Of a DNA stretch of 64,000 nt, positions 30,708 to 64,000 are shown piece after piece. The position numbers were made by a program, and so were the translations under genes. Within the stretch, counting starts at the first letter, position 1; each line of letters begins with the position of its first letter. The stretch comes from an uncultured Acidobacteriota bacterium (GTDB lineage: Bacteria > Acidobacteriota > Thermoanaerobaculia > Multivoradales > UBA5704): assembly GCA_963756455.1 (NCBI GenBank), contig CAVWNC010000004.1, positions 958,397 through 1,022,396 of the forward strand. The letters run 5' to 3'. Below the pieces are notes generated by a model. It was given only the letters and a program-made list of their open reading frames with translations, was not told the DNA's origin and made no database searches.

Positions 30708-30716
30708 TGGCCCTCC

Positions 30717-33591: not shown

Positions 33592-33694
33592 TTTCGGTAC
33601 ACTGCCGCCCAATCTTCGCCCATTTCTGGCAAACTTCGCCCTCCCTCCTTTGAGGCATAAGCCAATAAAAATCAATGGGTTATGGTGTTGTGAA

Positions 33695-38343: not shown

Positions 38344-38523
38344 GATCCTCCTTCCCAAGGGGAATGTGCCGCGGTGGGACAGCCGGGCACATCGCATACT
38401 CTGTTAATTGAAGATTATTTTCAATAGAGCCATTGCAGGATATCGGGAGCTGAGGACGCCGATCGGCAGCCCGCGGCCACAGACCCTCCGATCCTGCCAT
38501 ACTGTGGTCCAAGGGGGCACTCT

Positions 38524-45023: not shown

Positions 45024-45045
45024 TACCTAGCGCCGCAGAAGGTGG

Positions 45046-46306
45046 AGTGAGGCTTTCCCCCGAGGACGCCATGTTCTGGCGTTTCCACGGTCCGGTCACG
45101 CCGCAGACGATCGCCCTCGTGACCTTCCTCGACGGCGTTCCGGACCTCGATCGCCTGAGAGAGCTCTTCGCGCGGACGATCGTCGCCTATCCGCGCATGC
45201 GGAGCGTCGTTCGGCCGGGCGTCCGGCCAGGAGAGCCGCCGACCCTCGTGCCGCTCCCGAAGATCGACCTCCGCCAGCACGTCGAGGCCCTCACCCTGCC
45301 TGAGACGGCCGGCCGCGCCGACCTTGAAGCGGAGCTCGCCCGCCGCTTCTCGACGCCGCTCCCCATGGACCGGCCGCTCTGGCACCTCCTCCTCGTCGCG
45401 CTCCCGGTGTCGGGAGCCCCGGCGGCGATCCTTTGGCGGATTCACCACCTGGTGGCCGACGGCGTCACGGCCCTCGCCTTCGCGCACGAGATCCTCGGCG
45501 GCGCCGACGAGCGCCGCGGCTCGCCGCCGCCGCCCGCGCTGCCGGCCTCCCGGCCGCGGCCGCGGCTCCTCGCCCTCCTGCGCAGCCTGCGCGCCTGGGG
45601 CCGGCTCGACCGCGGGCCCAGCCCGCTCAACGGGGAGAGCTCGCCGGAACGCCGGTTGACCCCCGTCGACTTGGACCGCGCGACGCTCCGCCGGCTGATG
45701 CGCCGCTTCGACGCCAGCTCACTTGAAGTCCTGCTCAACGTCCTCACCTCCGCCCTGCGGCGCTACCACGAGCATCATGGCGCGCCGGTCGACCGCGACC
45801 TCACCGTCGTGATCCCGTACGCCGATCAACCGCCGTCGCGCGCCCGCTCCCAGGGGAACTTCTTCGGCTCGCGGTTCGTCCGCCTGCCCTTGGGAGAGCC
45901 CGACCCGGGCCGCCGCTTCGACGCTCTCCGGCGCGCCGTCCGGGAGGCGGGAGAGAACGGGGTGGACGAGCTGCTGCGTTTCGTCAGCGGCAAGTTCCAC
46001 CGCCTGCCCCGTGGCTTCCAGCGCGACCACCTGTGGGACTTCGCCCTGCGCTGCAACGCCGCCTGCACCGTGCTGCCCAGCCGGCTGGGCAAGGCGCGGC
46101 TCGACGGGCACGCGATCAGCGCCCACTATGCCGGCGCCGCCCTCCCCTTCTCGCACGGCGCCGCCTTCACCTTCCTCGCAACCGAGAACGCCCTCCGCGG
46201 GATGATCGTCTCCGATCCGGCGATCGTGCCGGACCCCGAAAATCTGCGCGACTTCCTTCTCGCGGGAGTGGAGGAGCTCGCTACTCGGCAGGCTCGCGGG
46301 GCGTGA
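45046..46306 (+). CDS. WS/DGAT-family acyltransferase (wax ester synthase / diacylglycerol acyltransferase-like)
   Basis: MRLSPEDAMFWRFHG (N-terminal LSPxD..F motif) and the catalytic HHLVADGVTA (HHxxxDG). It is the real 3' portion of track ORF 43154..46306. The GTG start at 45046 follows a GGTGGA RBS. Confidence 0.65.
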
Positions 46307-47585
46307 TTCCCTGCCGGTCGGCCTCGCCGGCGATCCGGCGGATGTATTCGGCCTGCCAGCGGAGCCCCCCGTCGCTGGCGACCGCCGGGGTCTGCCGGAA
46401 GGCTTGCGCTTCGTAGGCGGGGACGGCGGGGATCTCCAGGTCGGCGAGCGGCCGGCGCTCCCGCCGCCGGGCGAGCGCCGCCTCGACGCTCGGCCGCAGC
46501 ACCTGGGCCTTGAGCCGCTCCCGCTCGGCCTCCTGGGCCTGGAGCTCCGGCATCACCGTGCGGGCGAAGAGGCCGAGAGACTCACAGAGATGGTCGTGCC
46601 GGGTCTTTCCTACCGGCTGCAGGAGGACCACCTGGTCGACCCCGGCTTCGGCGAAGCCGAGCAGATAGTCGCGCAGCTGCCGCGGTGTGCCGATGCCGAG
46701 CTGGCGTCCGGGGAGGGCCGGCCGCACCTTCTGGAACTCTTCCCAGAGGTCGCTCCGGCCCGGCACGTGGGTGCCGTGGCCGTAGTAGTACGAGAGGGCG
46801 AACTGGAAGAACTGGAAGCCCTCGATGGCGCGCTCGCGCGCGACGCCCTCGTCCTCGTGGCAGAAAAAGGGGGTCACCATCGCTACGTTGGGGTTGACCG
46901 CGTAGCCGATCGGCGAGCACTCGCGGCGGAAGATCGTGTAGTACTCCTCGGTCCAGCGCTTCGCCTCGTCGGGGTCGATGAAGGCGAAGGACAGCGCTCC
47001 CAGGCCCAGCCGGGCGGCGAGCCGGATGGATTCGCGCCGCGTGCATGCCATCCAGAGGGGCGGGTGCGGCTTCTGGAGCGGCTTGGGGACGACGTTGCGG
47101 CAGGGCATCGAGACGTGCCGGCCGGCCGCGCCGCCGTAGGGCTCCATCACCATCATGTCGGTGATCTGCTCCAGCGCCTCGCGCCACATCTCGTGGCGCT
47201 CCTGCCGGTCGATGCCGAAGGCTTCGAGCTCGACCCGCGAGGCGGATTCGCCGGTCCCGAATTCGACCCTGCCGTTCGACACCAGGTCGAGCGTCGCGAT
47301 GCGCTCGGCGGCCCGGGCCGGGTGGTTGTAGCGGGGCGGCATCAGCATGACCCCGTGGCCGAGGCGGATCGTCCGGGTGCGCTGGGAGGCGGCGGCCAGG
47401 AACACCTCCGGCGCCGACGAGTGCGAGTACTCCTCGAGGAAGTGGTGCTCGGCGAGCCAGACGTGGTCGATGCCGAGGCGGTCGGCGAGCTCGATCAGGT
47501 CGAGCGCCTCGGTGAACAGGCGATGCTCGCCGCCTGCGCTCCACGGCCTTGGCAGTTGGTGCTCGCAGAAGAGCCCGAGCTTCAT
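46281..47585 (-). CDS. Luciferase-like (LLM-class) flavin-dependent oxidoreductase
   Basis: MKLGLFCEHQLPRPW...IDHVWLAEHHFLEEYSHSSAPEVFLAAASQRTRTIRLGHGV... is typical of LLM monooxygenases. Start ATG 47583-47585 overlaps the PKS-B TGA 47582-47584 (ATGA). Confidence 0.8.
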   Translation of the reverse strand: MKLGLFCEHQLPRPWSAGGEHRLFTEALDLIELADRLGIDHVWLAEHHFLEEYSHSSAPEVFLAAASQRTRTIRLGHGVMLMPPRYNHPARAAERIATLDLVSNGRVEFGTGESASRVELEAFGIDRQERHEMWREALEQITDMMVMEPYGGAAGRHVSMPCRNVVPKPLQKPHPPLWMACTRRESIRLAARLGLGALSFAFIDPDEAKRWTEEYYTIFRRECSPIGYAVNPNVAMVTPFFCHEDEGVARERAIEGFQFFQFALSYYYGHGTHVPGRSDLWEEFQKVRPALPGRQLGIGTPRQLRDYLLGFAEAGVDQVVLLQPVGKTRHDHLCESLGLFARTVMPELQAQEAERERLKAQVLRPSVEAALARRRERRPLADLEIPAVPAYEAQAFRQTPAVASDGGLRWQAEYIRRIAGEADRQGITPREPAE

Positions 47586-50500
47586 TCGACGCTCCCGACG
47601 CTCCCCGAAGCCAGGCCGGCCCGGGGACCGAGGTGGAAGGAGAGCGAGCTCTCGCCGCGATCGATCCGCACGGTCGTCTCTTCAACCAGCGTCGGCCGTA
47701 AGACGGTGGGCGCGGACCCGAGGCCGCCCAAAACGCGGATCTCGACCCGGCTCTCCCCCACCGCAGGACCGCGGTGCGCAGGGATGGTGTAGCGGCCGAT
47801 GTGGATGGGCCCCGAGGCGAGCGGCATCCTCGTCGGATCGCGCGTCAGGTCACGCGTCGGATCGATGGGGAGGAAGGTGATCGTCCCGAAGTCCACGGGC
47901 TTGCCGTCGACGGTGACCTCGCCTTCGACCGCGGCGCGCTCGACGTCGGCGAGGAAGCCCGAGGCACGCAGCCAGTCGTGGAGCCGCTCCTTCCAGGCGG
48001 CGAGCACCGGATCGCCGGCGGCGAGGCCGGCGCCGTGGGCGCCCCAGGGGAAGACATGGAGCTCGGCCGGCACCCGGGCGCGGCGCAGGGCGCCGAAGAA
48101 AGCGAGGCTGTGCTCGACCGCCACCGCCCCGTCCTCGCCGGTGTGGAAGAGGAAGGTCGGCGGCGTGCGCTCGTCGACATGGCGGTCGGCCGACAGGGCG
48201 TCGAGAAGCGCCGGATCCGGATCGTCGCCTAGGAGGCTCCGCCGGGTGACCACGCTGAGCCACTCCATGAGGCTGATCACCGGGTAGGCGAGGACGAGGA
48301 AGTCGGGCCGGCAGCCGTACCGCTCGACGGGGTCCCCGGCGGCCGCATCCCCGTCGTCGTGGCGGGTGGCGAGCGTCGCCGCGAGGTGCCCGCCGGCCGA
48401 AAAGCCCATCACTCCCACTCGGCGGGGCGAGACTCCGAGGTCGGCCGCCCGGCTGCGGACGTAGCGCACGGCGCGCCGCACATCCTCGAAGGGTGCTGGG
48501 TGGCGATAGCGCGGCGCCAGCCGATAGCCGAGGACCACGGCCGTCACCCCGAGCGTCTGGAGCCACTCGGCGACCTGGTGCCCTTCGGTGTCCATGGCGT
48601 GGGCCGAGTATCCCCCACCGGGGCAGACGACGATCGCGGTGCCCGTCGCAAGCTCCGACGCCGGAGTGTAGATGCGGAGGGTCGGCCGGTCCTCCGGCTC
48701 CGAGCCGAGGCTCCCCGGGGCACCCTCGGGCCAGAGGAGGAGGGGGACCGGGCCAATGCCGCCCTGCGTCCCGTCCACCGGCACTCGCGGCAATGGCGGC
48801 TCCGAAGCCTCCAGCTGGCGCTGCCAGAAAGCGCCGCCGGGGCCGGCCGCAACGGCGGCCGGGGTGGCAACCGGAGCGGCAGCCTGGGCGGAGGGCGGCG
48901 AGCCGAGACGGCCGGCGACGTAGGCGGCGAGCGATGCGACGCTCCGGTGGTCGAGGAAAGCCGTCGAGGCGAGCGAGAGCCCCAGAGCCGCCTCCAGCCG
49001 GCGGGTGAGCTCCGTCGCCACCATCGAGTCCATCCCGAGCTCCAGGAAGTCCTGCCGCGGCGCGGGCGGCTCGGGGAGGGCGAGGGCGGCCTGGACCTCA
49101 CGCTCGATCCGGGAGCGGATGAAGGCGAGGCGCTCCTCGGGCGTCGACCCGACCGCGGCCGGGCTCGCCTCCGGAGGCTCCTGCCGCCCGCTCCCGGTCC
49201 CTATCCAATGCCGGCGCCGTTCGAAGGGGTAGGTCGGAAGCTCGACCCGGCGCCGCCGCCAGGGCCGATCCCAGGCTGCGAAGTCGGGGGCGAACCCTTC
49301 CACGAAGAGCCGGGCGACGGCCTGGGCGATCTGCCGATCCGCATCGCCCTCAACATCGCCCTCGTTCAAGCCGGCGATCCGAACCATCCCTTCAGGGAGC
49401 GCGCCGTCCCCGGCGGCGGTCTCGGGACCGACGGTCAGGAGGACGCCACAGCCCGCCTCGATCAGGTCGTCTCCGGAGAGCGCCAGTCGCGCCGGCCCGG
49501 AGGCCCGCTCGCTCCAGGCGGCAAGCTCCGCGACCGACGGCCCCTGGGGGAACTGGGCGACGAGCCGGAATGCTTCCTCGGTGGCGAGCGCCCCCGCCGC
49601 CACCGCCGCCGCGTACTCCCCCACGCCGTCTCCCAGGACGACGTCGGGCTCGAACCCCCAGCTCCGCCAGAGGTCGGCCAGGGCCAGCTCCAGGGCGAGG
49701 AGGGCAGGCCCCGCCGCGAGCGGCGGGCCGCCCGCGAGTTGCTCACAACGCTCCATCTGCTCCTGGAAGACCGGCTGCGATCGGCGGAGCCCCCGGCCGG
49801 CGGCCGCGGGCGAGCCCGCCGCCTCTTGAAGCCCGGGAAAGAGCCAGGCACACCGCGGCCGCGCCGCCCGGCTGCTGCCGAGGGAGAGGCCGGGAACGAT
49901 CTCGCCCCGCGCGAGGCCATGGAGGAGCGCCCCGGCCTCGGCCGCCGACGCCGCGACCACGGCGGCCCGGTGCTCCAGGTGGCTGCGCCCGGTCCCGGCG
50001 GTGAAGGAGACGTCCGGGAGCGAGGCTTCCGGGTGCTCCAGAGGCTCCAGAAGCCGGCGCGCGTAGCGCTCGGCCAGCTCCACCAGGGCCGGCCGGCTCT
50101 TGGCGGAGAGGACCAGGAGGTGGTGGGTCCGCTCCGCGGCCGGTTCCGCCGCTTCTTCCGGCGGGGGCGGGGCGGTCACGACGACGTGGGCGTTGGTGCC
50201 GCTGAAGCCGAAGGCGCTCACCGCCGCGATCCTCTCCTTCCGGGGCCACGGCGCGGCCTCGGCGAGCACCGAGAGGGGGAGGCGCTCCCAGTCGACGTGC
50301 GGGCTCGGGGTCTCGAAGTGCAGGTGCTTCGGGAGCCGCCCCCGCGAGAGGGCGAGCACGACCTTGATCAGCCCGGCGACCCCGGCGGCGGCTTCAAGGT
50401 GGCCGATGTTGGTCTTGACCGACCCCACGAGAAGCGGCCGGCCGGCCTCCCGTCCCTCACCGAAGACCGCCCCGGCCGCCCGTAGCTCGATGGGATCGCC

Positions 50501-53500
50501 CAGGCTCGTGCCGGTGCCGTGGGCCTCCAGGTAATCGACCGCCGCCGGCTCGACGCCGGCCTGTGCCAGGGCCTCGCGGAGGACCCGCTCCTGGGCCGGG
50601 CCGTTGGGCACTGTGAGGCCGCTCGCGGCGCCGTCGTGGTTGACCGCCGAGCCGGGGAGGAGGGCCAGCACGCGGTCGCCGTCGCGCCGGGCGTCGGCCA
50701 GGCGTTTCAGGACGACGACGCCGCAGCCCTCGCCTCGGACGTAGCCGTTGGCGCGGGCGTCGAAGGTCCGGCACCGCCCGTCGGGCGACAGCATGCCGGT
50801 CTTCGACATGTGGATCATGCCGCTCGGGCTGAGGATCGCGTTGACGCCGCCGGCGAGGGCGAGATCGCAGCGGCCGGAGCGCAGGTGGTCGCAGGCCAGG
50901 CTGACCGCCACGAGCGACGAGCTGCAGGCGGTGTCGATCGCCTGGTTCGGTCCCTGGAGCCCCAGGACGTGGCTGATCCGGCCGACCCCGGTGCTGTGCG
51001 CCGTGCCGGTGGCGAAATAGGTGTCCCCCAGGCCATCGCCGCGGGCGAGGAGCTCGCCGTAGTCGCTCGTGCTCAACCCCATGAAAACGCCCGTGCGGCT
51101 GTCCACCAGGCTCGCCGGGGCGATGCCGGCGTGCTCCAGGGCCTCCCAGCTGACTTCGAGGAGCCAACGATGCTGGGGGTCGAGGCTCGCCGCCTCGCGC
51201 GGGCTGATGCCGAAAAACGCCGCATCGAAGCGGTCGGCCTCGCCCAGGAACCCGCCGTCCCGGGTGTACATCTTCCCCGGCGCTTGCGGGTCGGGGTCAT
51301 AGAACGCCTCGCGGTCCCAGCGCTCGGGCGGCACCGGCCCGACGGCGTCCGTCCCGGTCTCCAAGAGCCGCCAGAAGGCGTCGAGGTCGGGTGCCTGGGG
51401 GAAGCGGCAGGCCATGCCGACGAGGGCCACGGGCTCAGCGGTCTCCGTCCCTGCCGACACCGCCGGCCGTGGACTGGACGGACGGACGACCGTCTCCTCT
51501 CCCGCCTCCCCGAGCTGGCCGAGGAGGTGGTCGGCGAGACGATGGACGCTCGGGTAGTCGAAAGCGAGGGTTGAGGGCGGCGGCGGGGCGAGTGCGAGGT
51601 CGCGCTGGACGCGGTTGCGCAGCTCGACCGCCATCAGCGAGTCCATGCCGAGGTCGAAGAAGCCGGCCTCCCCATCCGGCGGGGAGGCGAGCTGCAAGAC
51701 CTCGACGACCTGGCGCTCCAGGTAAGCGCGTAGCTCGTCCTGGCGTCCCTTGGGGGAGACGGCGCGCAAGCGGGCGAGCGACGCGGCTTCGCGGTTCGGG
51801 CGGGTCGGGAGCGCCGGAGGAGGCGGCAGGAGATCCTCGACCAGCGAGGCCGACCGCGCTCCTGCTCGGGCGGCGAAGCGCCGCCAGTCGACCGCCGCCA
51901 CCAGGGCCTGGGGTGGACCGCCGGCGAGCAGGCGGCCGAGAGCGCCGAGGGCCTCGCCGGCCGCGAGGAGCTCGCCGCCCTGGGCACGATAGGCACCGGC
52001 GGCCTGAGGGTGGGAGGCCGCCATCCCTCCGATGCCGGCGATGTCCCAGAGCCCCCAATCGACCGCGAGCGCCGGCAGGCCGAGCCCGCGGCGGTGGTGC
52101 GCGAGAGCATCGAGAAAGGCGTTGGCGGCGGCGTAGTTGGCCTGCCCCGGCGCTCCCAGGACCGACACCGCCGACGAGTAGAGGACGAAGAAGTCGAGCG
52201 GATCTTCCCGCGTCAGAAGGTGGAGAGCCCAGGCGCCGCGGAGCTTGGGCACCAGGACGGCGTCGAAACGCTCGGCGCTCTGCTGGGCGAGGACGCCGTC
52301 GTCGAGGGTGCCGGCGGCGTGGACGACGCCGTGGAGGGGCGCCGACCGCCGCAGCTCGGCGAGGATCTCCGCCAGCCTCGCCTCGTCGGCCACGTCGCCC
52401 AGGAAGCAGCGGACGGCGCAGCCGCCGGCGCGGAGGGCGTCGAGCCTCGCCTCAACCGCGGGGCCGGCCGGCCGGCGCGCCAGGAGAGCGAGGCTCCGCG
52501 CTCCTGCCGCGGCCAGCCACTCGGCCGTCCGGAGGCCCAGCGCCCCGAGCCCGCCGGCGATCAGGTAGGTGCCGTCGGTGCGGAATGCGAAGCGCTCCTC
52601 CCCCTGGGGCATCGGGAGCCGGACGAGCCGGGGCACGTAGCGGTTGCCGCCGCGAAGGACGACCTCCTCCTCAGGGCCGGGGGCAAGGAGCTCCGCAATC
52701 AGGAGATCGACCTCTTCCGCTCCCAGCGGGTCCGCAGTGAGGTCGATCCGCGCGCACCGCGCCGCCGGCCGTTCGAGGGCGATCACCCGCCCGAGCCCCC
52801 AGACGGGCGCCTGGGCCGGGTGGACCGGAGCCTCGCCGTTCCCTTCTCCATTCCCGATATCCTGCACGCCGCGGGTCAGAAGCCAGAGGGGGACGCTCCG
52901 CCACTCCGCCGCCCCCTCGACTGCCCGCGCGAGATGGAGGACGCTCCGGCAGCCCCGCTCCTGGGCGGCGAGGAGCCCGTCGCCGGAGAGCTCGCCCTCG
53001 GGCGTCTCCGCCCAGAGGTGGAGGATGCCGCGGCAGGGCCGGCCGAGCGCCCGGGCCTCTTCCCGCACCTCGTCCAGGAGGCGGGCGTAGCCGGCCTCGT
53101 CCGCGGGGGGGATCGCCGTCTCGCGCGGGCCGGTCCGCGCGTAGGACTCCCCGGGGAGGGCTACGAAGCACACCTCGCCCACGGCCCCAAGCCGGGCGGC
53201 GAGATCGCGCCCCAGGGAGCCGCCGTCGGCAAAGAGGAGCCAGGAGCCCTCCTCCCCGGGGCCCGCCGCCAACAGTGCCGGCTCCGCCGTCTCCGGCCGT
53301 GGGCGAGGCCGCCATTCCAGCCCGTAGAGCGGCAGGCTGTCCTGCCGCTCCGCGTAGGGGACGAGGTTTTCGAGTTGGGCGCGGTTCGCGCGATCGAGCT
53401 CCGCCCAGCGGCTCGCGGGCTCCTTCCTGGCGGTCAAGAGGACGTAGCGCGCGAGGCCCCTCTCCAGCATCCGCCCGAGCTGGTGGTAGGAACGGGCCGA

Positions 53501-56500
53501 CGCGGCGACGTTCCGGTCGACCTCCCGGGCCCCATCGGCGACCTCCGTCGCGTTGCGCTCGAAGTCCTCGTCATGGAGAAAGTTGGCGATCTCCCGGCTG
53601 ATGTCGATCGACTCGGTCAGCCGGAGACGGTGGGTCGAAAGGAGCTGCACCCACTCTTCGCAGGTCGAGAAGAAGGACGAGGTCTCCTCGTGTTCGATGC
53701 CGGTGTCCGAGGTCGAGAGGAAGTCGGCAAGGACGAGGAGGCCGCCGTCGTCCAGATGCCGCTCGATGTTCGCGAAGAGGCGTGCCTTCTCGCGGATGTG
53801 GTGGGCCACCTCGAAGCCGAAGACGAGCTGGTAGCGGGCGGGAAAATCGTCCTCCGCGCTGTTCCGGTGGAAGATCTCGACCCTGGAGGCGAGCCCTTCC
53901 TCGGCCAGCCGGCGGCGACCGAAGGCCGCCTGCTCCCCTGAGAGGGTATAGCCGTGGAGCCGGAGGTGGGAGTGGGCCTGGGCGAGGAGGACGAGGTCGC
54001 TCCCCATCCCGCAGCCGAAGTCCAGGGCGCTCGCGATCTCGGCGAAGGGGACCTTCGCGAAGAGCGCCCGGCGCATCTCCTGCTGCGCCCGGCGCACCAG
54101 GGCGGCCTGCTCCGGATAGCGCTCCGGCTGGCCCATCGCCCGCACCCAGGAGAACCCCGGGACGCGCTGCGGCAGCGGCCCGAAGGTCAGGAAGGGGGCC
54201 TCCGTCCGCCCTTCGAGCCCGCGGAGGAGGGCATCGTAGTAGTCGGCGACGACGGTCCCCGGAGTGGCGTCAGAGCTTCCGGAGCCGCCGGGCGTACCAG
54301 AGGGGACGCGGACCCAGACGCGACGCCGCGCGAAGGGATAGGTGGGGAGGGTGAGCTTGCGGCGCGGCCAGGGCCGGTCCCAGGCGGCGAAGTCGGGGGT
54401 GACGCCGCGGACGTAGAGCCTCGCCACGGCCTCGGCGAGCTGGCGTCCCTCGCTCCGCTCCCGGCGCAGGGAGGGGACCAGCTCCGGCCGCGGCACCGAC
54501 TCCGGCCAGGCGCGGCCGGCCATGCCTGTGAGCACCGCCTGCGGACCGACTTCGAGGAGCACCCCGACGCCTTCCGCGGCGAGGGTGCGGACGCTCTCCC
54601 CGAACTGCACGGGCTCCCGGGCGTGCCGCCGCCAATAGAGAGCTTCCAGAACCTGGCCGGCCGCCGGTGGCCGGCCGGTCAAGTTGGTCACCAGGAGCCG
54701 CTGGGCGGGGCGGAAGTCGACGACGCTCGCAGCGGCTTCGAAAGCGTCGAGGACCGGCTCGACGAGGACGGAGTGGAAGGCGTGAGAGGTGGCCAAGACC
54801 TTGCCGCGCACGCCGCGCTCCGCGAGCCGCGCCACGAGAGCCAGGAGCCTCGCCTGCGGACCGCTCACCACGACGTGGGCGCCGTTGTCGGCGGCCAAGG
54901 CCAGCCCCTCCTCTCGCGCCAGCTCCCGCTCGATCGTCCCGACGTCAGTGAAGAGAGAGGCCATGCCGCCGCCGGCCGGCAGGCTTCCCATGAGCTCGGC
55001 GCGCCGGGCGATCAACGCTAGCCCCTCTTCGAGGGTGAAGACGCCGGCGACGACCGCCGCCGCGTACTCCCCGACGCTGTGGCCCAGGACCACGTCCGGC
55101 TCGACGCCCCAGCTCCGCCAGAGCTCGGCCAGGGCCACCTCGACGGCGAAGAGCGCCGGTTGGGTGTAGCGGGTGTCGTCCAGGAGAGCCGGGGCGCCAT
55201 TGCCTCCCGCCGCGGCGAAGAGCACGTCGAGGAGCGGGCGGTCGAGCTTCCCCCGGAGCCCCTGGGCACAGCGCTCAAGGATATCCCGGAAGACCGGCTG
55301 GGTGCGGTGGAGCTCGCGGGCCATCCCCGGGTACTGGCTGCCCTGTCCGGGGAAGAGCCAGGCGACCTTGGGCCGGCCGCGGACCTGGCCGCGGAAGAGA
55401 CCGGGAGCGCCCTCGCCCACCCGCAGCTGGCCGAGGAGCTCCCGCGCCTCGGCCGCCGAGCCGGCGACGAGGGCCGCCCGCTCTTCCAGGGGGTGGCGCC
55501 CCACCCCGAGGGTGTAGGCGACGTCCGCCAAGTCGGCGGTAGGATGCTCGGCGAGCCAGGCGAGCTGGCGGCCTGCCAGCGCGGGGAGGGCGGCGGCGGC
55601 GCGTCCCGAGAGGGTCCACACGTGCTCGCCGCGCTCGGCCGGTGCGGCGGGCGTTATCGGAGCCTGCGACGGTATCGGAGCTTCGGCCAGCACCACGTGG
55701 GCGTTGGTGCCGGCGAAGCTGAAGGCGCTCACCCCGGCGATCCGCGGACCCGCGGGCCAGGGGACGGGCTCGGCCGCGACCCGCAGCGGCAGCCGCTCCC
55801 AGGGGATGTGGGGATTCGGGCGGACGAAGTGGAGCTGCCGAGGGATGACGGGCTTCTGGAGCGCGAGGACGACCTTGATCAGCCCGGCGATCCCGGCCGC
55901 CGCTTCGAGGTGGCCCAAGTTGGTCTTGACCGCCCCGACGTAGAGCGGCCGGCCAGGCTCCCGGCCGGAGCCGAAGGCGGCGCCGGCGGCTTCCATCTCG
56001 ATCGGATCGCCCAGGCTCGTCCCCGTGCCGTGGGCTTCCAGGTAGGCGACGTCTTTGGGCTCGACCCCGCTCCGCTTCAGAGCCTCGCGGATCACCCGTT
56101 CCTGGGCGCGGCCGTTGGGCACCGTGAGGCCGCTGCTCGCCCCATCCTGGTTGACGGCGCTGCCCCGGACCACCGCGAGCACCGGGTCGCCGTCTCGCTG
56201 CGCGTCCGCCAGGCGCTTGAGGACGACCGCGCCGCACCCTTCGCTCCGCGCATAGCCGTCGGCCGCGGCGTCAAAGGACTTGCAGCGGCCGTCCGGGGCG
56301 AGCATCCGGGCCTTCGAGAAGTTGATCATGGCGAGCGGGGTGAGGACGGCGTTGACGCCGCCCGCGAGCGCCAGGTCGCACTCCCGGGAGAGCAGGCTCC
56401 GGCAGGCGAGGTGCACCGCCACGAGCGACGAGCTGCAGGCGGTATCGATGGCCATATTGGGTCCTTCGAGGCCGAGGAGGTAGCTGATCCGGCCCACCGC

Positions 56501-57091: not shown

Positions 57092-60000
57092 GGTTGGAGA
57101 TCGTCCGGCGAGAGGATCGCGGCGAGCTGGCGGCTCAGGAGGTCCGACAGCTGATCGGCGGAAAGCTCGTCGAGCCCGTCGCTCTCGGACGCCGCGGACG
57201 CCTGGGGGACGGCCTCCGGCACCGACGGCGCGGCGAAACGGGCGGCGGGGATCCCGTCCGGCGCCTCGGGCGCGGCAAGCTCGGGAGTCGAGGGCCGGTC
57301 GTCGAGGCGCTCGACCAGGTGGGCGGCGAGGGCGCGGACGCTCGGGTGGTCGAAAAGCGCCGTCGGCGAGAGCGCGCTCCCCAGCCGGAGCTCCTGGTTG
57401 ATGCGGTTGCGCAGCTCGACCACCATCAGCGAATCCATGCCGAGATCGAAGAGCCCGGCGTCCGGGGCGACCGGCGAGGGGAGGCCGAGGACCCGCATGA
57501 CCTCCTGGCCGAGGTACTCCATCAACAGGGAGAGACGCGCCTCCTCCGGGGCACGCTCCAGCCGGCGGCGGAGCCCCGAGCGCGCCGGCGTGCCGGGGCT
57601 CGCGGATGGGGCGGTCAGGACTTCGGCGAGGAAGGGCGGCACTCCCCTGCCGCCGAGCCTGTCCGCGAAGCGCCGCCAGTCGATCGGCAGGACGCCCACT
57701 TGGGAGCGGCCGCTCGCCAGGGCGCGACCGAGCGCCAGAAGCCCCTGCTCCGGCGCGATCCAGTCGAGACCGAGATCTGAAACCCGCGACTCCGCCCGGA
57801 CGGCGGCGCCGATCCCCGACCACGCTCCCCAGTTGATGCTTAAAGCCGGCAGGCCAGAGGCCCGGCGGTGGCGGGCCAGGAGGTCGAGGAAGGTGTTCGC
57901 CGCCGCGTGGTTCGCCTGCCCGCGATTGCCGAGGAGCGCGGCGGTACTGGAGAAAAGGACGAAGTGGTCGAGCGGGCGACCGGCGGTCAGCCGGTGGAGG
58001 TGCCAGGCCCCCTGCACCTTGGCGGCCAGAACCTCCTCGAAGCGCTGCCAGGTCTGGTTCAGGAGCGCGCCGTCCCGGAGGACTCCGGCCAGATGGAAGA
58101 CGCCGGCGAGCGGCCTGCTGTCCCGCGTCGCGCGCTCCAGCCAGCGGCGCACGTCAGACTCCTGCGAGACGTCTCCGGTGATCACCTCGATATCGATGGT
58201 GCCGGCGGTGTTGGCACCGAGCCGGCGCAGATCGTCCAGGGCCGCTTCGGCCTTGGGGCCGGGCGGCCGGCGGCCGGCAAGGAGCAGGTGACGCGCCCCC
58301 TGGGAGGCGAGCCAGCGGGCGACCGCCAGGCCGAGCCCGCCGAGGCCGCCGGTGAGGAGGAATGTCCCTTCGGGAGAGAAGGCGGGCGGCGCGGGCTCCC
58401 CCAACTCGCACCGCACGAGGCGGGGCACCCGCCAACGTCCGCCCCGCCGGGCGAGCTGGTCCTCACCCTCCGGCCGCAGGAGCTCCGCCGTCAGCGCGTC
58501 CAGAGCTCCCGAGGAGTCCTCGGCAGGGTCGCCGAGCCCCACCGCCTCGAAGTCCACCCGCCGGCAGGCGAGCTCCGGGTGCTCCAGGGCGAGCACCTTG
58601 GCGAGCCCCCAGATCGGCGCCTGGGCGAGGGAGTCGCAGGCCTCCTTAGCCGTCACCTGCGCTCCCCGGGTCACCACCCAGAGCCCTCCCTGGGCCAGCG
58701 CATCCCGACGCGCCAGGGCTACGGCGAGCGCCAGGAGGCTGCCGCAGCCGTGCCGGACATCGGAACTCAGAGTGTCAGCCGACTCGGTAAGGGTCTCGGC
58801 GGTCGGCGCCGCGTCGAGGCTCCACAGGTGGACGACCCCGCGGAGCGGCGGCGCCCCGGCGAACGCCTCGGCGAGGAGGCGCTCCCAGTCCCGCGCGTCC
58901 TCTCCGGGGAGACGGTAGCGATCCTCGCCGGTCCGCGCGTACCCCTTCCCCGGCTCGACGAGCGGCTCGACGAGAATGCAGCGCTGGCCGCGGCGGGCGA
59001 GTCGCTCTGCCAGGGCCGCCCCCACGGACGTCCGGTCCGCCGCGATCAGCCAGGAGCCGGCCGGCTCGGCCGGAGGCCGCCACTCCGGAGCGGCCCGCGC
59101 CACGAGGATCGCCTGGCTGTCCACCCCGGCGGGGGCGATCGCCACCGGTTCCCAATAGCCGGAGGCTTCGAAGGCGCGCGACCACCCCGCGGCGGAGAGG
59201 AGCGGATAGTCCGTCCGCAGCCCGTCGGCGAAACGCCACCAGCCCTCGAGAAGACCGAAGGTGAGATCGAGCCACCCCTGGGGACGGAGGCCCTCGACCA
59301 GAAGCAGCAGCCCGCCCGGCGCGAGCAGCCGGCGCACATGCTCGAGAGCCGCCCCGAGGTCGCGGGTGGCGTGGAGCACGTTGGCGGCGAGGACGAGGTC
59401 GAACGGCCCGGTCTCCCCCTGCTCGGAGGGCGGGCGTTCGAGGTCGAAGGTCCGATAGCGCACGAAGCCGTAGCCGGCGAAGCGCTGCCGCGCGGCGTCG
59501 AAGAAACCGGCCGAGACGTCGGTGTAGAGGTAGTCCACCCGCCCGGCGGGGAGGAGGGGGAGGATCGCCGCGGTCGTGGCGCCGGTGCCGGCGCCGACCT
59601 CCAGGACCCTCAGTCGCCGGCCGGCCGGGAGATCCCGCAAGGCGGCGGTCACGGTCTCCCCGGCCAAGCGGTTGAAGAGCCGAGGGCCGGCGGCCTCGCG
59701 GTAGAGATCCTCGACGCCCGGGCCGTCCGGGGGGAAAAGGAGGGCCAAGGGGTCGGACCGGCCGGTAAGGACGGACGCGAGATCGGCGCCGCAGCGGCCG
59801 AGGAGCGCCAGCTCGACCCGCGCCTCGGGGTAGCTCGCGGCGAGCTCTGCGCGCCGCCGCTCCGGGTCGACCGGCTCCGGGGCTCGCGCGACCTTCCATC
59901 CGTCGGCACGGGCGGCGGCGGGGGCGAGCCAGCCGGCCTCGCCCAGGATGGCGAGGAGGCGCCCCAGGAGCTTGCGATGCGCCGGAGCGATGCCCAGGCG

Positions 60001-63000
60001 AGAAGCCAGCTCCCCGGCCGTGAGCTCCCCGCCCGCGACCGACGCCCAGCCCAGAAGGTCGAGGGCACGCCAGGCGTACTCCTGGGCCAGGCGTTCGAGC
60101 CCGTCGGCGAGCGCCCGGGTGCGCGGGCCGACGCCCTCTTCTTCGGCCAAGGCCTCGGCCGTGGCCAGGAGGGTGGTCGCCAGGTCGCCCGGCGCGGGCC
60201 AGAAGTCGGCCGGCGCGTCCCGTTCTTCGAGATCCCGCCAGACCACCTCGTACATCCATTCGGCGAGAGCGTCGGGCCGCGCCGCGAGGAGGGTCCGGCG
60301 GCTGGCGCGCCGCGCCACGTAGCCGTCGATCCGCCCGCGGAGCCGGCCGTCCTCGCCCAGGAGCCGGAGGTCGGCGGTCAGGGTCTCGGCCTCCCTTCCG
60401 CCCTCCCGCAGCCGGACATGGCAGTAGAAGAGGGCCGGCACCGGCCCGTCGATCTCGATCTCCTGCCAGGCGAACGGCACGTAGGCCCCGGGCTCCCGCA
60501 ACCCAGAGCCGGCAGGCCCGGCGAGCTGAAGACAGGCATCGAGCACCGCGGGATGGATGGGGAAGTCCCCGCGTTCGAGCCCCGGGGGGACGCGGATCTC
60601 CCCCAGCGCCTCGCCCGGCCCCCGCCAGAGCCGGCCCACCCCCTGGAATCGCGGTCCCAGCTCGATGCCCGCGGCGGCGAAGACCGCGTAATCCATCGGC
60701 TCCTCGGACAGCCGGCCGCGAAGCTCGGCGAGGGTCGAGCCGCCGGGATCCGGTGACGCCTGCGGCGCGAGCGCCTCGCGGCGCCCCTCGATGTGGAGCA
60801 TCCAGGCACCGCCCGAGCCATCCAGGGGCCGACTGAAGATCTGGAACGCCCCCCCACCCTCCGCCTCCGGCTTGAGCACCAGCTGGAGCTCCCGCGCCGA
60901 CTCCGGATCGTCGAGTTGGAGCGCGCGCTGGATCAGGCCCTGCGACAGCCGGCACGGGCCGTGGACCGACGCCAGGACCATCGCCAGATGGCTCGCCGCC
61001 GGCACCACAACTGTGCCGAACACCCGGTGGTCGGAGAGCCAGGGCTGCCGGCGGCAGCTCACCTCCTGCGTATAGACCTCCTCCCCCGAGGCCAGATCCT
61101 GCCGCGTCCCCAGGAGCGGATGGGACGGCCCGCTCCCCACCGGCCGGCCCGGACGCCCAGGCTCCAGCCAGTAACGCTGGCGCTGGAAGGGATAGGTCGG
61201 CAGCCGCTCCCGGCGCCGTGGCCAAGGGTGGTCCCACGCCGCGAAGTCGAGAGTCCGGCCGTGGACGTGGAGGATCGCCGCCGCCGCTGCAAGCTGACCG
61301 TCTTCTTCAGCATCGCGGCAAAGCGAAGCCGCGAGGATCGGCGCCGGAACCGCCTCCGGCCAGCTCGCGGCCACCCTCATAGAAAGCACCGGATGGGGTC
61401 CCACCTCCAGGAGCAGCCCGACTCCCAGACGCGCCAAAGTCTCGACGCCCGAGCCCAGCGCCTCCCCCGTCTGGCTCCACACCGACATCCGTTCGACCTC
61501 AGGCCTCCCCGCCACTCCCGCCAATACCCCTTCCTCGAACGGCGTCACCCCCGCCACCACCGCCGCTGTGATCTCCCCCACTCCCTGCCCCGCTACCACT
61601 TCCGGTTCCTGCCCGAACGACCGCCAGAGCGCCGCCAACCCCAGCTCCACCGCCAGGAGCGCTGGACCCGCGGACCGCGCTTCGTCATCGAGGAGAGATT
61701 CCACGCCCAGCAGGCGGCTGCAACGCTCCACCACCTCGCGGAAGACCGGCTGGCTTGAGTAGAGCTCCCGGCCCATCCCCACGTACCCGCTTCCTTCACC
61801 CGGAAACAGCCAGGCCACCTTCGGCTGGGAACGGGAGCTCCCCCGGAACAGGCCTACCGCCGATTCCCCTCGCTCCAGGCAGCCCAGGAGCTCAACGGCC
61901 TCCAACGCCGTGCTCGCCACCAAACCCGCCCGCTCCTCCAGGTGGTTGCGCCCCACGCCCGCCGTATACGCCACGTCCCCCAGATCCGCCTCCGGATGGC
62001 TCAAAAGCCACGAACGATATCTCCCAGCGAGCGCCAACAACGCCTCCGGCTGGCGAGCTGACAGGACCAGGAGGTGAGCCCCCCGCGCCCCGCCCGCGCT
62101 CTCCCAACGGCGGGACGGCGGAGCCTCCTCCACGACCACGTGCGCGTTTGTGCCGCTGAACGCGAACGAGCTCACCCCGGCGACCTTCCGCCCCGCTGGC
62201 CACGGCGTCGCCTCGGACGACACCCGCACCGAGATCTCCTCCCAAGCCATCCGCGGCGACGGCTGACGGAAGTGCAGGTGCGCGGGAATGAGATCCCCCT
62301 CCATCGACAGCACCACTTTGATCAAGCCCGCGATCCCCGCTGCCGTCTCCAGGTGACCCATGTTCGTCTTGACCGAGCCCACGAGGAGCGGCGACCGCCG
62401 CGCCCGACCCGCCCCGAACACCGCCTCCAGGGATCGGATCTCGATCGGATCACCGAGTGCCGTCCCCGTCCCGTGCGCCTCCACATACGAAACCGCCTCC
62501 GGCTCCACCCCGCCCTGCGCCAAAGCCTCCCGGATCACCCGCTCCTGCGACGGACCGTTCGGCACCGTCAAGCCGCTGCTCCGACCGTCCTGGTTGACCG
62601 CCGAGCCGCGGATCAAACCCCAGATCCGGTCCCCGTCCCGCTCGGCGTCGCTCTGACGCTTGAGCACCACGATCCCGCAACCCTCCCCCCGCACGTAGCC
62701 GTCCGCCGCGGCGTCGAACGCCTTGCACCGGCCGTCCGGCGCCATCATCCGCGCTTTTGAGAAGTACACCGTCAGGTCCGGGCTGAGGATCGCGTTGACG
62801 CCACCGGCGAGCGCCACCTCGCAGTCCCCCGAAAGCAGCGCCCGGCAAGCCTGGTTGAGCGCCACCAGAGACGCGCTGCAAGCCGTGTCCACCGCCATGC
62901 ACGGACCCTGGAGGCCGTAGACGAAGCTCAGCCGACCCACCGCCGCGCTCAGCGCGTTGCCCGTCCCCAGGTACTGATCGATCGCCTCGACTCCCTGGGA

Positions 63001-64000
63001 GGAGATGAGACGTCCGTAGTCGGTCGTCGCCATCCCCATGTAGACGCCGGTCCGGGTGCCGAACAGGCGTTGCGGCGGGATGCCGGCGTTTTCGAGCGCT
63101 TCCCAGGTCACCTCCAGGAGCAGCCGCTGCTGCGGGTCGAGGGTCACCGCTTCGCGCGGAGAGATGCTGAAGAACTGCGGGTCGAAGCGGTCGATCCCCT
63201 CCAGGAAGCCGCCGAACCGCGTCGTCATCTTCCCCGGCGCCTCGGGGTCCGGATCGTAGAACGACTCGATGTCCCAGCGCTCCGCCGGCACCTCGCGGAT
63301 CGCGTCCACCCCGTCGCGCAGCAGCCGCCAGTAGCTCTCCACGTCCGGAGCGCCCGGCAGCCGGCAACCCAGACCCACGATCGCCACCGGCTCGTCCAGA
63401 GAGCCCCGGCGCGGCTCACGCGCCAGGGCAGGCTTCGCCGCGAGCCCCAGCAGACGCTCGCTCAAGTGCCCCGCGAGGCTCGTCACCGTCGGATAGTCGA
63501 ACGCCACCGTCGACGCCAGCCGGTACGACGTCCCGAGCTGCGCTTGCAGGCGGTTGACCAGCTCGACCGACAGCATTGAGTCCATCCCCAGGTTGAAGAA
63601 ACCCTCTTCCGGGTCCGGCGGCCCGGGAAGCGCCAGCACCGCCTGCACCTCGCGCTTCAGGTGCTCGGCCATCGCGCCCCGCCGGCCCTCCGGCGAGAGC
63701 GCCGTGAGACGCGCCAGGAGATCCGAGCCGCCCGCTCCCGGCGCACACAGCTCCTGGAGAAGCGACGGAGGCACCGACGACTGATCCCCGTACCGGCGCC
63801 AGTCCGCGCGCAGCACCGCCCCCTGGGCCACCCCGCCGACCACCAGACGTTCGAGCGCGGCGTGCGCCTCCTCCGTCTCCAAGAGGCCCAACCCGCGCGA
63901 CCGCAGGCGCGTCTCCAGGGAACGCTCCGACACCATCCCTCCCGCCGACCACGGCCCCCAGTTGACGCTCGTCGCGGCGAGCCCCTGCCGGCGACGCTCC
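57088..64000 (-). CDS. Type I PKS 'PKS-A', partial (5' end beyond right edge). Visible: ...KR C-terminus, ACP, KS, AT-like(Ser->Gly), DH, cMT, KR(Tyr->His), ACP, C-terminal docking
   Basis: There is no in-frame stop between 63937 and 64000 (minus strand reads ...ATSVNWGPWSAGGM, a KR C-terminal motif), so the gene continues off-window. ACP: FFNLGMDSMLSVEL. KS: EPVAIVGLGCRLPG, DTACSASLVAL, EAHGTGTALGDPIE, KTNMGHLETAAG. AT-like: FPGEGSGYVGMG and GQGVGEI. DH: HRVFGTVVVPAASHLAM. cMT: LEVGAGTGATT. KR: GTFLLTGGLGGLG and GQANHAAAN (cac at 57907-57909, minus strand). ACP: LGMDSLMVVEL. The docking helix DELSADQLSDLLSRQLAAIL ends at TGA 57088-57090. Confidence 0.85.
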   Translation of the reverse strand, partial: ERRRQGLAATSVNWGPWSAGGMVSERSLETRLRSRGLGLLETEEAHAALERLVVGGVAQGAVLRADWRRYGDQSSVPPSLLQELCAPGAGGSDLLARLTALSPEGRRGAMAEHLKREVQAVLALPGPPDPEEGFFNLGMDSMLSVELVNRLQAQLGTSYRLASTVAFDYPTVTSLAGHLSERLLGLAAKPALAREPRRGSLDEPVAIVGLGCRLPGAPDVESYWRLLRDGVDAIREVPAERWDIESFYDPDPEAPGKMTTRFGGFLEGIDRFDPQFFSISPREAVTLDPQQRLLLEVTWEALENAGIPPQRLFGTRTGVYMGMATTDYGRLISSQGVEAIDQYLGTGNALSAAVGRLSFVYGLQGPCMAVDTACSASLVALNQACRALLSGDCEVALAGGVNAILSPDLTVYFSKARMMAPDGRCKAFDAAADGYVRGEGCGIVVLKRQSDAERDGDRIWGLIRGSAVNQDGRSSGLTVPNGPSQERVIREALAQGGVEPEAVSYVEAHGTGTALGDPIEIRSLEAVFGAGRARRSPLLVGSVKTNMGHLETAAGIAGLIKVVLSMEGDLIPAHLHFRQPSPRMAWEEISVRVSSEATPWPAGRKVAGVSSFAFSGTNAHVVVEEAPPSRRWESAGGARGAHLLVLSARQPEALLALAGRYRSWLLSHPEADLGDVAYTAGVGRNHLEERAGLVASTALEAVELLGCLERGESAVGLFRGSSRSQPKVAWLFPGEGSGYVGMGRELYSSQPVFREVVERCSRLLGVESLLDDEARSAGPALLAVELGLAALWRSFGQEPEVVAGQGVGEITAAVVAGVTPFEEGVLAGVAGRPEVERMSVWSQTGEALGSGVETLARLGVGLLLEVGPHPVLSMRVAASWPEAVPAPILAASLCRDAEEDGQLAAAAAILHVHGRTLDFAAWDHPWPRRRERLPTYPFQRQRYWLEPGRPGRPVGSGPSHPLLGTRQDLASGEEVYTQEVSCRRQPWLSDHRVFGTVVVPAASHLAMVLASVHGPCRLSQGLIQRALQLDDPESARELQLVLKPEAEGGGAFQIFSRPLDGSGGAWMLHIEGRREALAPQASPDPGGSTLAELRGRLSEEPMDYAVFAAAGIELGPRFQGVGRLWRGPGEALGEIRVPPGLERGDFPIHPAVLDACLQLAGPAGSGLREPGAYVPFAWQEIEIDGPVPALFYCHVRLREGGREAETLTADLRLLGEDGRLRGRIDGYVARRASRRTLLAARPDALAEWMYEVVWRDLEERDAPADFWPAPGDLATTLLATAEALAEEEGVGPRTRALADGLERLAQEYAWRALDLLGWASVAGGELTAGELASRLGIAPAHRKLLGRLLAILGEAGWLAPAAARADGWKVARAPEPVDPERRRAELAASYPEARVELALLGRCGADLASVLTGRSDPLALLFPPDGPGVEDLYREAAGPRLFNRLAGETVTAALRDLPAGRRLRVLEVGAGTGATTAAILPLLPAGRVDYLYTDVSAGFFDAARQRFAGYGFVRYRTFDLERPPSEQGETGPFDLVLAANVLHATRDLGAALEHVRRLLAPGGLLLLVEGLRPQGWLDLTFGLLEGWWRFADGLRTDYPLLSAAGWSRAFEASGYWEPVAIAPAGVDSQAILVARAAPEWRPPAEPAGSWLIAADRTSVGAALAERLARRGQRCILVEPLVEPGKGYARTGEDRYRLPGEDARDWERLLAEAFAGAPPLRGVVHLWSLDAAPTAETLTESADTLSSDVRHGCGSLLALAVALARRDALAQGGLWVVTRGAQVTAKEACDSLAQAPIWGLAKVLALEHPELACRRVDFEAVGLGDPAEDSSGALDALTAELLRPEGEDQLARRGGRWRVPRLVRCELGEPAPPAFSPEGTFLLTGGLGGLGLAVARWLASQGARHLLLAGRRPPGPKAEAALDDLRRLGANTAGTIDIEVITGDVSQESDVRRWLERATRDSRPLAGVFHLAGVLRDGALLNQTWQRFEEVLAAKVQGAWHLHRLTAGRPLDHFVLFSSTAALLGNRGQANHAAANTFLDLLARHRRASGLPALSINWGAWSGIGAAVRAESRVSDLGLDWIAPEQGLLALGRALASGRSQVGVLPIDWRRFADRLGGRGVPPFLAEVLTAPSASPGTPARSGLRRRLERAPEEARLSLLMEYLGQEVMRVLGLPSPVAPDAGLFDLGMDSLMVVELRNRINQELRLGSALSPTALFDHPSVRALAAHLVERLDDRPSTPELAAPEAPDGIPAARFAAPSVPEAVPQASAASESDGLDELSADQLSDLLSRQLAAILSPDDLQP

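Follow-up and report, generated by a model that had tools for sequence, protein, structure and literature searches.

Mycobacteria make phthiocerol dimycocerosates (PDIM) with the Pps and Mas polyketide synthases (PKSs), the PapA5 acyltransferase and Rv2951c, a phthiodiolone ketoreductase of the luciferase-like monooxygenase (LLM) class. We describe here a locus with a comparable set of genes in an uncultured Acidobacteriota bacterium (Thermoanaerobaculia; Multivoradales; UBA5704). The window, that is, the whole stretch of DNA analysed, covers 64,000 nucleotides of contig CAVWNC010000004.1 (assembly GCA_963756455.1, positions 958,397 to 1,022,396) and has a G+C content of about 72%. Its right-hand part carries two PKS genes, PKS-A and PKS-B, followed by a gene for an LLM-class flavin-dependent oxidoreductase, towards which a gene for a wax ester synthase/diacylglycerol acyltransferase (WS/DGAT) is transcribed. 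The two lists of parts are alike in having a PKS for a methyl-branched, methoxylated lipid, an esterifying acyltransferase with an HHxxxDG motif and an LLM-class oxidoreductase. They differ in that PapA5 is a condensation-like enzyme and not a WS/DGAT, and in that Rv2951c depends on F420 whereas flavin mononucleotide (FMN) is favoured for the LLM of the window. Moreover, no sequence orthology is known to link the two systems, the window has no Mmpl/Drr transporters, and PDIM has no known counterpart of the two ABC1 kinases found in the window. We propose, with moderate confidence, that the LLM is a lineage-specific accessory that became coupled to the PKS operon, rather than a core, built-in part of it.

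The three genes and their two junctions all lie on the minus strand:

57088-63999, minus strand: PKS-A, 2303 visible residues, open to the right edge of the window (Pfam, translation and motifs); G+C at third codon positions (GC3) 0.88
57088-57091, minus strand: ATGA overlap of the PKS-A stop with the PKS-B start, reading ...CTC CAA CCA TGA, with the ATG at 57091-57089 and PKS-B starting ATG ACC...
47582-57091, minus strand: PKS-B, 3169 residues (Pfam and motifs)
47582-47585, minus strand: ATGA overlap of the PKS-B stop with the LLM start, reading ...GTC GAA TGA, with the ATG at 47585-47583 and the LLM starting ATG AAG...
46281-47585, minus strand: LLM flavin-dependent oxidoreductase, 434 residues (PF00296, E 1.4e-51)

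Both ATGA overlaps are exactly where an earlier note on this DNA had placed them. The tetranucleotide alone is uninformative because it is common on this strand (59 copies on the minus strand of the 64-kb window); the two overlaps are not due to chance, since each coincides with gene ends that homology supports. Indeed, PKS-B begins with MTD, as does its orthologue in a related cluster which also has an ATGA overlap, and the LLM N-terminus (MKLGLF...) lines up from the very first residue with MKFGIF, the consensus of its family. The start given for PKS-A at 63936 in the list of open reading frames (ORFs) is an artefact of the window edge, residues 1-20 being the end of an upstream ketoreductase. 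GC3 stays between 0.86 and 0.96 throughout the three frames and is uniform over the PKS-B/LLM junction, and a Shine-Dalgarno-like GGGAG lies 8-12 nt 5' of the LLM start. A promoter and terminator scan from 44.5 to 58.5 kb gave no signal above shuffled background. The gap-free junctions and the absence of such signals make a single transcription unit of PKS-A, PKS-B and LLM the natural reading, so the operon that had been claimed is probably real, with co-transcription deduced from the DNA itself. Gene overlaps and a nearby flavoenzyme in a PKS operon are, however, routine for biosynthetic clusters.

We then asked what a related cluster holds at the same place. A 38.7-kb metagenomic contig with 62% G+C, L095, carries a PKS-B orthologue (P0243) and is colinear with both PKS-A (45-68% identity) and PKS-B (50-59%), including the O-methyltransferase, the single acyltransferase and the esterase-type end. 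It keeps the ATGA overlap between the two PKS genes. Its PKS-B ends with ...LSFHL-TAA, a convergent WS/DGAT gene follows about 10 nt on, then a phosphopantetheinyl transferase (PPTase) gene, and no homologue of the LLM or of the ABC1 kinases was found in the 7.6 kb from the end of PKS-B to the end of the contig. This cluster thus partly contradicts a co-conservation of the LLM with these PKS genes, whose absence from related clusters the earlier note had named as a ground for refutation. In the window, the last 15 codons of PKS-B (47585-47629) read GPRAGLASGSVGSVE and extend 14 residues past the stop of the orthologue, to the TGA. Because the LLM is absent after PKS-B in L095 and WS/DGAT is the constant neighbour of the esterase end, the position of the LLM in the window looks derived.

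The distribution of the LLM family points the same way. Among 8000 scored candidates, all with E <= 1e-20, the best 120 listed were 58-72% identical to the LLM, and homologues at 52-65% identity occur in 80 species-representative (GTDB) genomes, from Alphaproteobacteria, Myxococcota, Chloroflexota, Methylomirabilota, Poribacteria and Actinomycetota to a haloarchaeon and a Bacteroidota isolate. An exact search for the LLM of the window gave no entry. Neighbourhoods were compared at 87 loci, which two duplicate pairs reduce to 85 distinct ones. A ketosynthase lies within 10 kb of the LLM at three of the 85 (L002, L080 and L086). Even the most frequent neighbours, namely short-chain dehydrogenases/reductases (SDRs), molybdenum aldehyde oxidases, CoA-transferases, TetR, alcohol dehydrogenases and cytochromes P450, are each found at no more than 16 of the 87 loci. 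A family that is conserved, widespread and rarely linked to a PKS suggests general rather than product-specific chemistry.

The foremost alternative, which we consider unlikely, makes the LLM a tailoring enzyme dedicated to this polyketide and built into its pathway. It would have co-evolved with the PKS and would oxygenate or reduce its chain, possibly on the acyl carrier protein (ACP) as do MupA and the PuwE Ox domain. LLMs are established as tailoring enzymes of polyketides (PMC10952193, PMC8739492, PMC8093152), and the ATGA coupling to PKS-B with its Shine-Dalgarno-like sequence, the uniform GC3 across the junction and the PKS-type genes found near close relatives of the LLM in L002 and L092 all agree with such a role. 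Separate LLM-PKS pairings exist as well. At L080 (Lewinella cohaerens DSM 23179, NZ_KB903598.1, 8280-20269), an LLM 55% identical to that of the window stands in the order fatty-acyl-AMP-ligase (FAAL)-like gene, LLM, PKS, then a non-ribosomal peptide synthetase (NRPS). The PKS of this locus has the order ACP-ketosynthase (KS)-acyltransferase (AT)-dehydratase (DH)-ketoreductase (KR)-ACP and its NRPS the order C-A-T, with P450, KAS III, PPTase and sulfotransferase genes around. At L086, in a metagenome-assembled genome (MAG) of the Gemmatimonadales, the LLM precedes a KS-AT-KR gene. These two LLMs form a clade of their own in a neighbour-joining tree, apart from that of the window LLM, and L080 is an independent recruitment of the family to a PKS context. 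Against built-in tailoring stand the absence of an LLM after PKS-B in L095, the spread of homologues over 80 genomes from a wide range of phyla, of which hardly any have a ketosynthase within 10 kb, and the lack in this PKS of the KS0-ACP 'oxidation' module used by MupA. The protein also misses the cut-off of every NCBIfam LLM subfamily, the best being MsnO8 (103.8 against 166.95 bits), and scores 61.9 bits against a cut-off of 244.45 for the MupA/Atu3671 secondary-metabolite family (TIGR04020). The known polyketide-tailoring LLMs, namely MupA (mupirocin), MsnO8 (mensacarcin), RslO1 (rishirilide) and PuwE Ox, share the fold and PF00296 with the window protein, but at only 20-26% identity; the latter has a C-terminal extension of about 85 residues and belongs to a family that is widespread outside biosynthetic clusters. 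The step from operon structure to built-in tailoring, which the earlier note made with a "therefore", is not warranted, given an orthologous cluster without the flavoenzyme, a family overwhelmingly not linked to PKSs, the subfamily cut-offs that the protein misses and the LLM-ABC1 operons in which its nearest relatives stand.

Several points nevertheless weigh against our own reading of the LLM as an accessory. An enzyme dedicated to the pathway would be expected to show just such tight ATGA coupling as is seen in this genome. The 16.8 kb upstream in L095 lie outside the comparison, and an LLM may sit at that other end of the cluster. The ORF calls break up the L095 PKS genes into several pieces, probably because of frameshifts in the sequencing. 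Finally, the comparison comprises three loci with the esterase end and five close LLM relatives, and most of the contigs are short.

The closest relatives of the LLM bring another set of genes into the discussion, which in the window forms a convergent plus-strand operon (41758-46306) adjoining the LLM:

41758-43410, plus strand: ABC1/UbiB-type atypical kinase (ABC1a), PF03109 E 3.3e-57, with a C-terminal membrane segment
43407-45023, plus strand: second ABC1/UbiB-type atypical kinase (ABC1b), PF03109 E 1e-49, with a C-terminal membrane segment and a GTGA overlap with ABC1a
45047-46306, plus strand: WS/DGAT O-acyltransferase, PF03007/PF06974, with HHLVADG at nt 45443

The acyltransferase scores 172.7 bits with TIGR02946, below the cut-off of 309.95, and has both domains and the HHxxxDG motif. 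It converges on the LLM, and the 3' ends of the two genes overlap by 26 nt (46281-46306). This overlap leaves no room for a terminator, so the ends of the two transcripts should be antisense to each other.

The close LLM clade consists of the window protein and five relatives at 69-72% identity (L001, L002, L092, L093 and L094); window, L001 and L002 group as one clade in the neighbour-joining tree. An ABC1 kinase gene lies directly 3' of the LLM in all four close relatives with a readable downstream flank, and the product of this neighbouring gene shares 55-64% identity with ABC1a in L001, L002, L092 and L093. L001 and L002 have the LLM, then both ABC1 genes, the second 51-53% identical to ABC1b, then a weak patatin-like match (L001 13629-15569; L002 7810-8589); L001 also has a gene like phospholipase D or cardiolipin synthase, in keeping with the lipid-related surroundings. 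On the divergent upstream side of the LLM, L002 has the start of a PKS (AprA-like methyltransferases (MTs), ACP and KS), L092 an ACP and a KS, and L001 a PPTase. The close relatives thus head LLM-ABC1 operons rather than trail a PKS. The L001 esterase, whose gene runs into the end of its contig, has a one-residue deletion and a VVTRR signature in common with the esterase-type ends in the window and in P0243; it is directly followed by WS/DGAT, and the LLM is encoded on the opposite strand at a distance of about 5 kb. Consequently, WS/DGAT adjoins the esterase end at two of three loci (L001 and L095) and is one gene away in the window.

These arrangements raise a second alternative, namely that the LLM belongs to a separate lipid unit, made up of the two ABC1 kinases, a patatin-like lipase and WS/DGAT and devoted to neutral-lipid or wax-ester turnover, which was rearranged behind PKS-B and is co-transcribed with it without acting on the polyketide. 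The recurrent order of LLM and ABC1a in close relatives, with ABC1b and the patatin-like match in L001 and L002, speaks for it, as do the operon that the ABC1 pair and WS/DGAT form by themselves in the window and the variable redox or catabolic contexts of the wider LLM family (SDR, aldehyde oxidase, CoA-transferase, TetR, alcohol dehydrogenase and P450). We regard it as distinctly improbable: in L001 the unit again has beside it WS/DGAT and an esterase belonging to the PKS-fused clade, and PKS-type genes or a PPTase adjoin it in every example that is long enough (L001, L002 and L092). A scan of metagenomes with ABC1a found nothing closer than 26-35% identity, so the LLM/ABC1 unit seems rare, and literature searches returned no description of a gene set joining an LLM, ABC1/UbiB kinases, WS/DGAT and a PKS. 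The association of LLM, ABC1a/b, WS/DGAT and the PKS-esterase fusion at the level of the cluster is real on these comparisons, with an arrangement that differs at every locus. It is plausible that the LLM, as an accessory, shares a pathway with the PKS, since in L001, L002 and L092 the members of its close clade have PKS-type genes, WS/DGAT or the esterase in their vicinity.

What chemistry the LLM may bring depends on its cofactor. The protein matches PF00296 over the full length of the profile (positions 1-314 of 314) and keeps every family-invariant residue. Its AlphaFold model (pLDDT 84) shows a TIM barrel, to which a conserved C-terminal extension made of helices is joined, and LLM structures are its top fold matches: 2i7g, RslO1, the Enhygromyxa luciferase, LuxA, MsnO8 and PuwE Ox come first, and the F420-dependent Mer, Adf and FGD from rank 19. 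By sequence, the nearest solved relatives are RslO1 (5.5e-27), 2i7g and LuxA-type luciferases, with FMN types down to 1e-12 and F420 types at about 1e-9 (6e-10). Moreover, the family is present in many lineages that are not known to make F420. Three observations count on the other side. The fold margin between FMN and F420 types is narrow (E 3e-19 against 5e-16) and the NCBIfam matches mix both types; the motif GTGES resembles the GTGE of the F420-dependent FGD; and no flavin reductase gene was found within the 64-kb window. The check for an FMN or F420 signature that the earlier note had called for thus ends with the FMN types ranking first by both sequence and fold, by narrow margins. An FMN-dependent two-component monooxygenase is accordingly the favoured assignment from the sequence comparisons and the structural model, with small margins. 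RslO1, MsnO8 and PuwE Ox are themselves FMN-dependent oxygenases that work with a separate flavin reductase (PMC8093152, PMC10952193).

The PKS itself is less routine than its operon. Docking between its two proteins had been claimed from a C-terminal tail of PKS-A and an N-terminal coil of PKS-B, and the following elements are involved:

57112-57174, minus strand: C-terminal helix of PKS-A, putative docking element, LDELSADQLSDLLSRQLAAIL, after a Pro/Ala-rich linker
56969-57046, minus strand: N-terminal coiled coil of PKS-B, putative docking head, AADQLRNAVRAIQKLQARVRELETAV

The tail letters that had been reported are present at residues 2276-2303 of PKS-A, which end ...LDELSADQLSDLLSRQLAAIL-SPDDLQP*. 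The tail reads SLDDLTYDELSTLLDQRVEHILS in L095 and GLDELSADQLSDLLSRQLAAILS in the window, so that the motif LD[DE]L..D[EQ]LS.LL......ILS is kept and the linker is not; the head coils of L095 and the window have AVRAI..LQ in common (AVRAIDTLQ and AVRAIQKLQ, respectively). At its N-terminus, PKS-B can be aligned to the coiled coils that have been solved for the N-termini of DEBS module 5 (2hg4), Lsd14 and CurL (4mz0), with an E of about 1e-3. The PKS-A tail gave no meaningful match to solved structures, solved docking domains included, and one clear helix is visible in it. A docking-class scheme has been described in which class 2 is typical of non-actinobacterial PKSs (PMC9113145). The pairs CurG/CurH and CurK/CurL as well as Bamb_5925/5924 of the class 2 cis-AT docking domains resemble the present case in their place at the ACP/KS junction, in a short C-terminal helical tail and in an N-terminal coil before the KS; the window tail differs in having no significant match to the solved pairs and only one clear helix. 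Tail and head are conserved amid a diverged linker, and the coil aligns with solved PKS N-termini, which supports the docking idea. PKS-A and PKS-B are therefore co-directional subunits with matching putative docking elements.

Pfam and motif searches gave for PKS-A the order (end of KR)-ACP-KS-AT remnant-DH-C-methyltransferase (cMT)-KR (Tyr to His)-ACP-C-terminal tail, and for PKS-B the order N-terminal coil-KS-AT (malonyl)-O-methyltransferase (O-MT)-KR-ACP-KS-AT remnant-ACP-esterase-type hydrolase-beta-rich tail. Within these, the domains that matter most for the present argument are:

61384-61821, minus strand: dead AT remnant of PKS-A, GQGVGE in place of GHSxGE, Pfam positions 2-117 of 319
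57817-58368, minus strand: KR of PKS-A with His for the catalytic Tyr (GQANHAAAN), the His codon starting at 57909
54401-55360, minus strand: sole intact AT of the visible PKS, GHSVGE and HAFH, malonyl-type, Pfam positions 2-317 of 319, kept in L095
53348-54277, minus strand: O-MT domain of StiD/StiE type, between AT and KR of PKS-B
49421-49855, minus strand: dead AT remnant of the last PKS-B module, GDGVGE, absent from P0243/L095

The catalytic motifs are intact in all three KS domains (Cys/His/His), in all four ACPs (the Ser of DSL) and in the DH, as are the S-adenosylmethionine-binding motifs of the MTs. The ATs are a different matter. Aligned with the intact AT of PKS-B, both remnants lack about 115 residues plus 19 residues with identical boundaries, and in both a Gly replaces the active-site Ser. 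Only one of the three visible modules has an intact AT, so that the PKS falls short of a series of full cis-AT modules, in which KS, AT and ACP would all be intact. Since two of the three modules hold only dead AT remnants, loading in trans would be required; no discrete AT gene was seen in the window. L095 goes further: both remnants are removed entirely (at 1784-1809 and about 12535-12620) while the intact AT is retained. On these alignments, the window and L095 represent two stages of cis-AT loss in one PKS family. Trans-AT or AT-less PKSs are comparable in that two of three window modules have no working AT and that the segment is wholly gone in L095, but the window line keeps one conserved cis-AT and recognisable remnants of the others.

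The first module of PKS-B has the domain order of the StiD and StiE modules of the stigmatellin PKS of Stigmatella aurantiaca (KS-AT-OMT-KR-ACP), and its O-MT matches the solved StiE (6ecx, E 7.9e-77 over 310 residues) and StiD (6ecw, E 1.7e-70) domains. A beta-methoxy group is therefore expected. The KR of this module has its catalytic Tyr (GQANYAAAN) and an LDD motif. The window departs from the stigmatellin line in having one working AT per three modules, an upstream cMT/DH/KR(His) module and an esterase-type end. A word-indexed homologue search with the O-MT/KR-linker region of PKS-B gave two matches, the better one 44% identical, on a 1.8-kb Vicinamibacteria contig without gene context. 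The StiE-like O-MT and the CurL-like linkers, together with relatives in MAGs of Myxococcota and Vicinamibacteria, would by themselves point to a high-GC Gram-negative lineage. As regards the altered KR of PKS-A, the same His is found in L095 (at about 4892), in an orthologue that is about 45-50% identical, and the DH of the module is intact. This conservation makes the Tyr to His change probably meaningful.

The second unusual trait of the PKS is the way in which it ends, the last ACP of PKS-B being followed by two elements:

47951-48754, minus strand: C-terminal alpha/beta-hydrolase of BD-FAE/Abhydrolase_3 type, PF20434 E 5.4e-25
47585-47950, minus strand: beta-rich C-terminal tail, common to free-standing esterases (alignment A1)

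The hydrolase also matches PF07859 and PF00326. Its triad is intact, with Ser in GFSAGGH, Asp in HTGEDG and His in GAHGAGL, and alignment A1 shows no variation in the columns of the triad; Pfam gave no PF00975 thioesterase match in PKS-B. The nearest NCBIfam models are pectin/xylan acetyl-esterases (PaeX/AxeA1-like) and the nearest solved structure is 6a6o (E 2e-42). Its best 120 relatives in a database of 5.8 billion proteins are 50-58% identical and all free-standing, with about 400 residues, many from Planctomycetes. These free-standing relatives bear signal-peptide-like N-termini, and the PKS-B domain starts exactly at their mature part. A full HMMER search of 1.84 billion representative proteins, with the ACP and the first half of the hydrolase as the query, revealed exactly one other ACP-fused esterase among the best 150 matches, that of P0243, in which Ser, Asp and His are intact. 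An origin of the fusion in a chimera or frameshift was ruled out: GC3 is uniform, no alternative frame with a start or signal peptide exists, and the fusion recurs in P0243/L095. Canonical PF00975 thioesterases of PKSs are alike in standing right after the last ACP, in being alpha/beta-hydrolases and in their Ser-Asp-His triad, whereas the end of PKS-B is of another family (BD-FAE/Abhydrolase_3) and has the extra beta-rich tail. In our view, the hydrolase has most likely taken over chain release from the missing thioesterase. It counts against this proposal that the case for release is drawn only from the position of the domain, its intact triad and the absent thioesterase. Our literature searches found no described PKS terminus of esterase type.

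That the PKS is instead a decaying, non-functional relic, its fusions and overlaps being accidents of decay, is highly improbable: two AT remnants with Ser to Gly changes and large deletions, a KR with Tyr to His and the missing PF00975 thioesterase could be so read, but 16.9 kb of frame are unbroken with GC3 of about 0.9 and intact KS, ACP, DH, MT and esterase motifs, and an orthologue that is 45-59% identical and differs in G+C (62% vs 72%) keeps the one AT, the His of the KR, the fusion to the esterase and the docking motifs, such sharing of odd features with the divergent L095 indicating purifying selection rather than decay.

Altogether, these data suggest the following scenario for a working PKS with an accessory LLM. 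PKS-A would pass its chain to PKS-B through the C-terminal helix and the N-terminal coiled coil, and the single malonyl-type AT, or an unseen trans-AT, would load all modules. The chain would gain a C-methyl branch from the cMT, a beta-methoxy group from the O-MT/KR module and a final beta-keto unit, and the captured acetyl-esterase/lipase-type domain would then release it from the last ACP. WS/DGAT would most likely esterify the product, or might take the chain from the ACP as the mycobacterial PapA5 does. In the lineage of the window, the LLM would have been placed between the end of PKS-B and WS/DGAT, so that PKS-B reads 14 extra codons into the ATG-A of the LLM. The latter would most likely act after release and oxygenate the lipid-like polyketide or its ester, by hydroxylation, epoxidation or a Baeyer-Villiger-type reaction, and the ABC1 kinases may have a lipid-handling or regulatory role. 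A more elaborate route was considered, in which a beta-keto acid gives a methyl ketone, the LLM converts it into an acetate ester by Baeyer-Villiger oxidation, the acetyl-esterase frees the alcohol and WS/DGAT esterifies it. It agrees with the set of genes present, but we set it aside as speculation, the type II Baeyer-Villiger LLM 4uwm being only the 33rd fold match.

Other genes of the window deserve a brief mention. Divergently upstream of ABC1a, a 494-residue ORF (40186-41670, minus strand) has a weak DUF5636 match (E 2.6e-8), and a long plus-strand frame overlaps this candidate gene. An NRPS gene (3-22526, minus strand) runs off the left edge of the window as one uninterrupted frame of 7508 residues with seven or more C-A-T modules and belongs to a different cluster, which lies 24 kb away from the PKS operon. 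Tandem MacB-type ABC permeases (MacB_PCD and FtsX; 22456-25062 and 25120-27579, plus strand) are divergent from it, and a MacB-like gene is also found near the PKS cluster of L095 (16.5-17.4 kb). A class II lanthipeptide synthetase, LanM (35014-38397, minus strand), has DUF4135 and LANC_like domains (E 1.7e-115), and small ORFs nearby, e.g. 34805-35065 (minus strand), could encode precursor peptides. The stretch from 28000 to 34000 has 62-65% G+C, against 70-75% elsewhere, with several ORFs without a Pfam match and an AbiEi-antitoxin-like gene (31799-32491, minus strand); it looks like an acquired island between biosynthetic clusters.

If the overlaps and the flavoenzyme are ordinary, the acetyl-esterase-type end, the staged loss of cis-ATs, the conserved Tyr to His KR and the company of WS/DGAT and ABC1 kinases are not. 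We tentatively propose, as a possibility that we still hold to be doubtful, a small family, not described before, of clusters for polyketide lipids, in which a BD-FAE esterase stripped of its signal peptide was captured for release, cis-ATs were shed with one AT serving several modules, WS/DGAT gives a wax-ester-like product, and the LLM, ABC1 and patatin-like genes form a mobile oxidation and handling unit. The esterase-type terminus, which two divergent genomes keep and which has hardly been seen on other PKSs, could offer a new way of off-loading as well as a new part for the engineering of PKSs. The orthologue pair, caught at two stages of cis-AT loss, bears on the origin of AT-less (trans-AT-like) modules. 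Finally, the repeated occurrence together of WS/DGAT, two ABC1 kinases and an LLM points to a storage or envelope lipid made from a polyketide and not to a classical antibiotic; if true, this modular PKS would have a role that is unusual outside mycobacteria.

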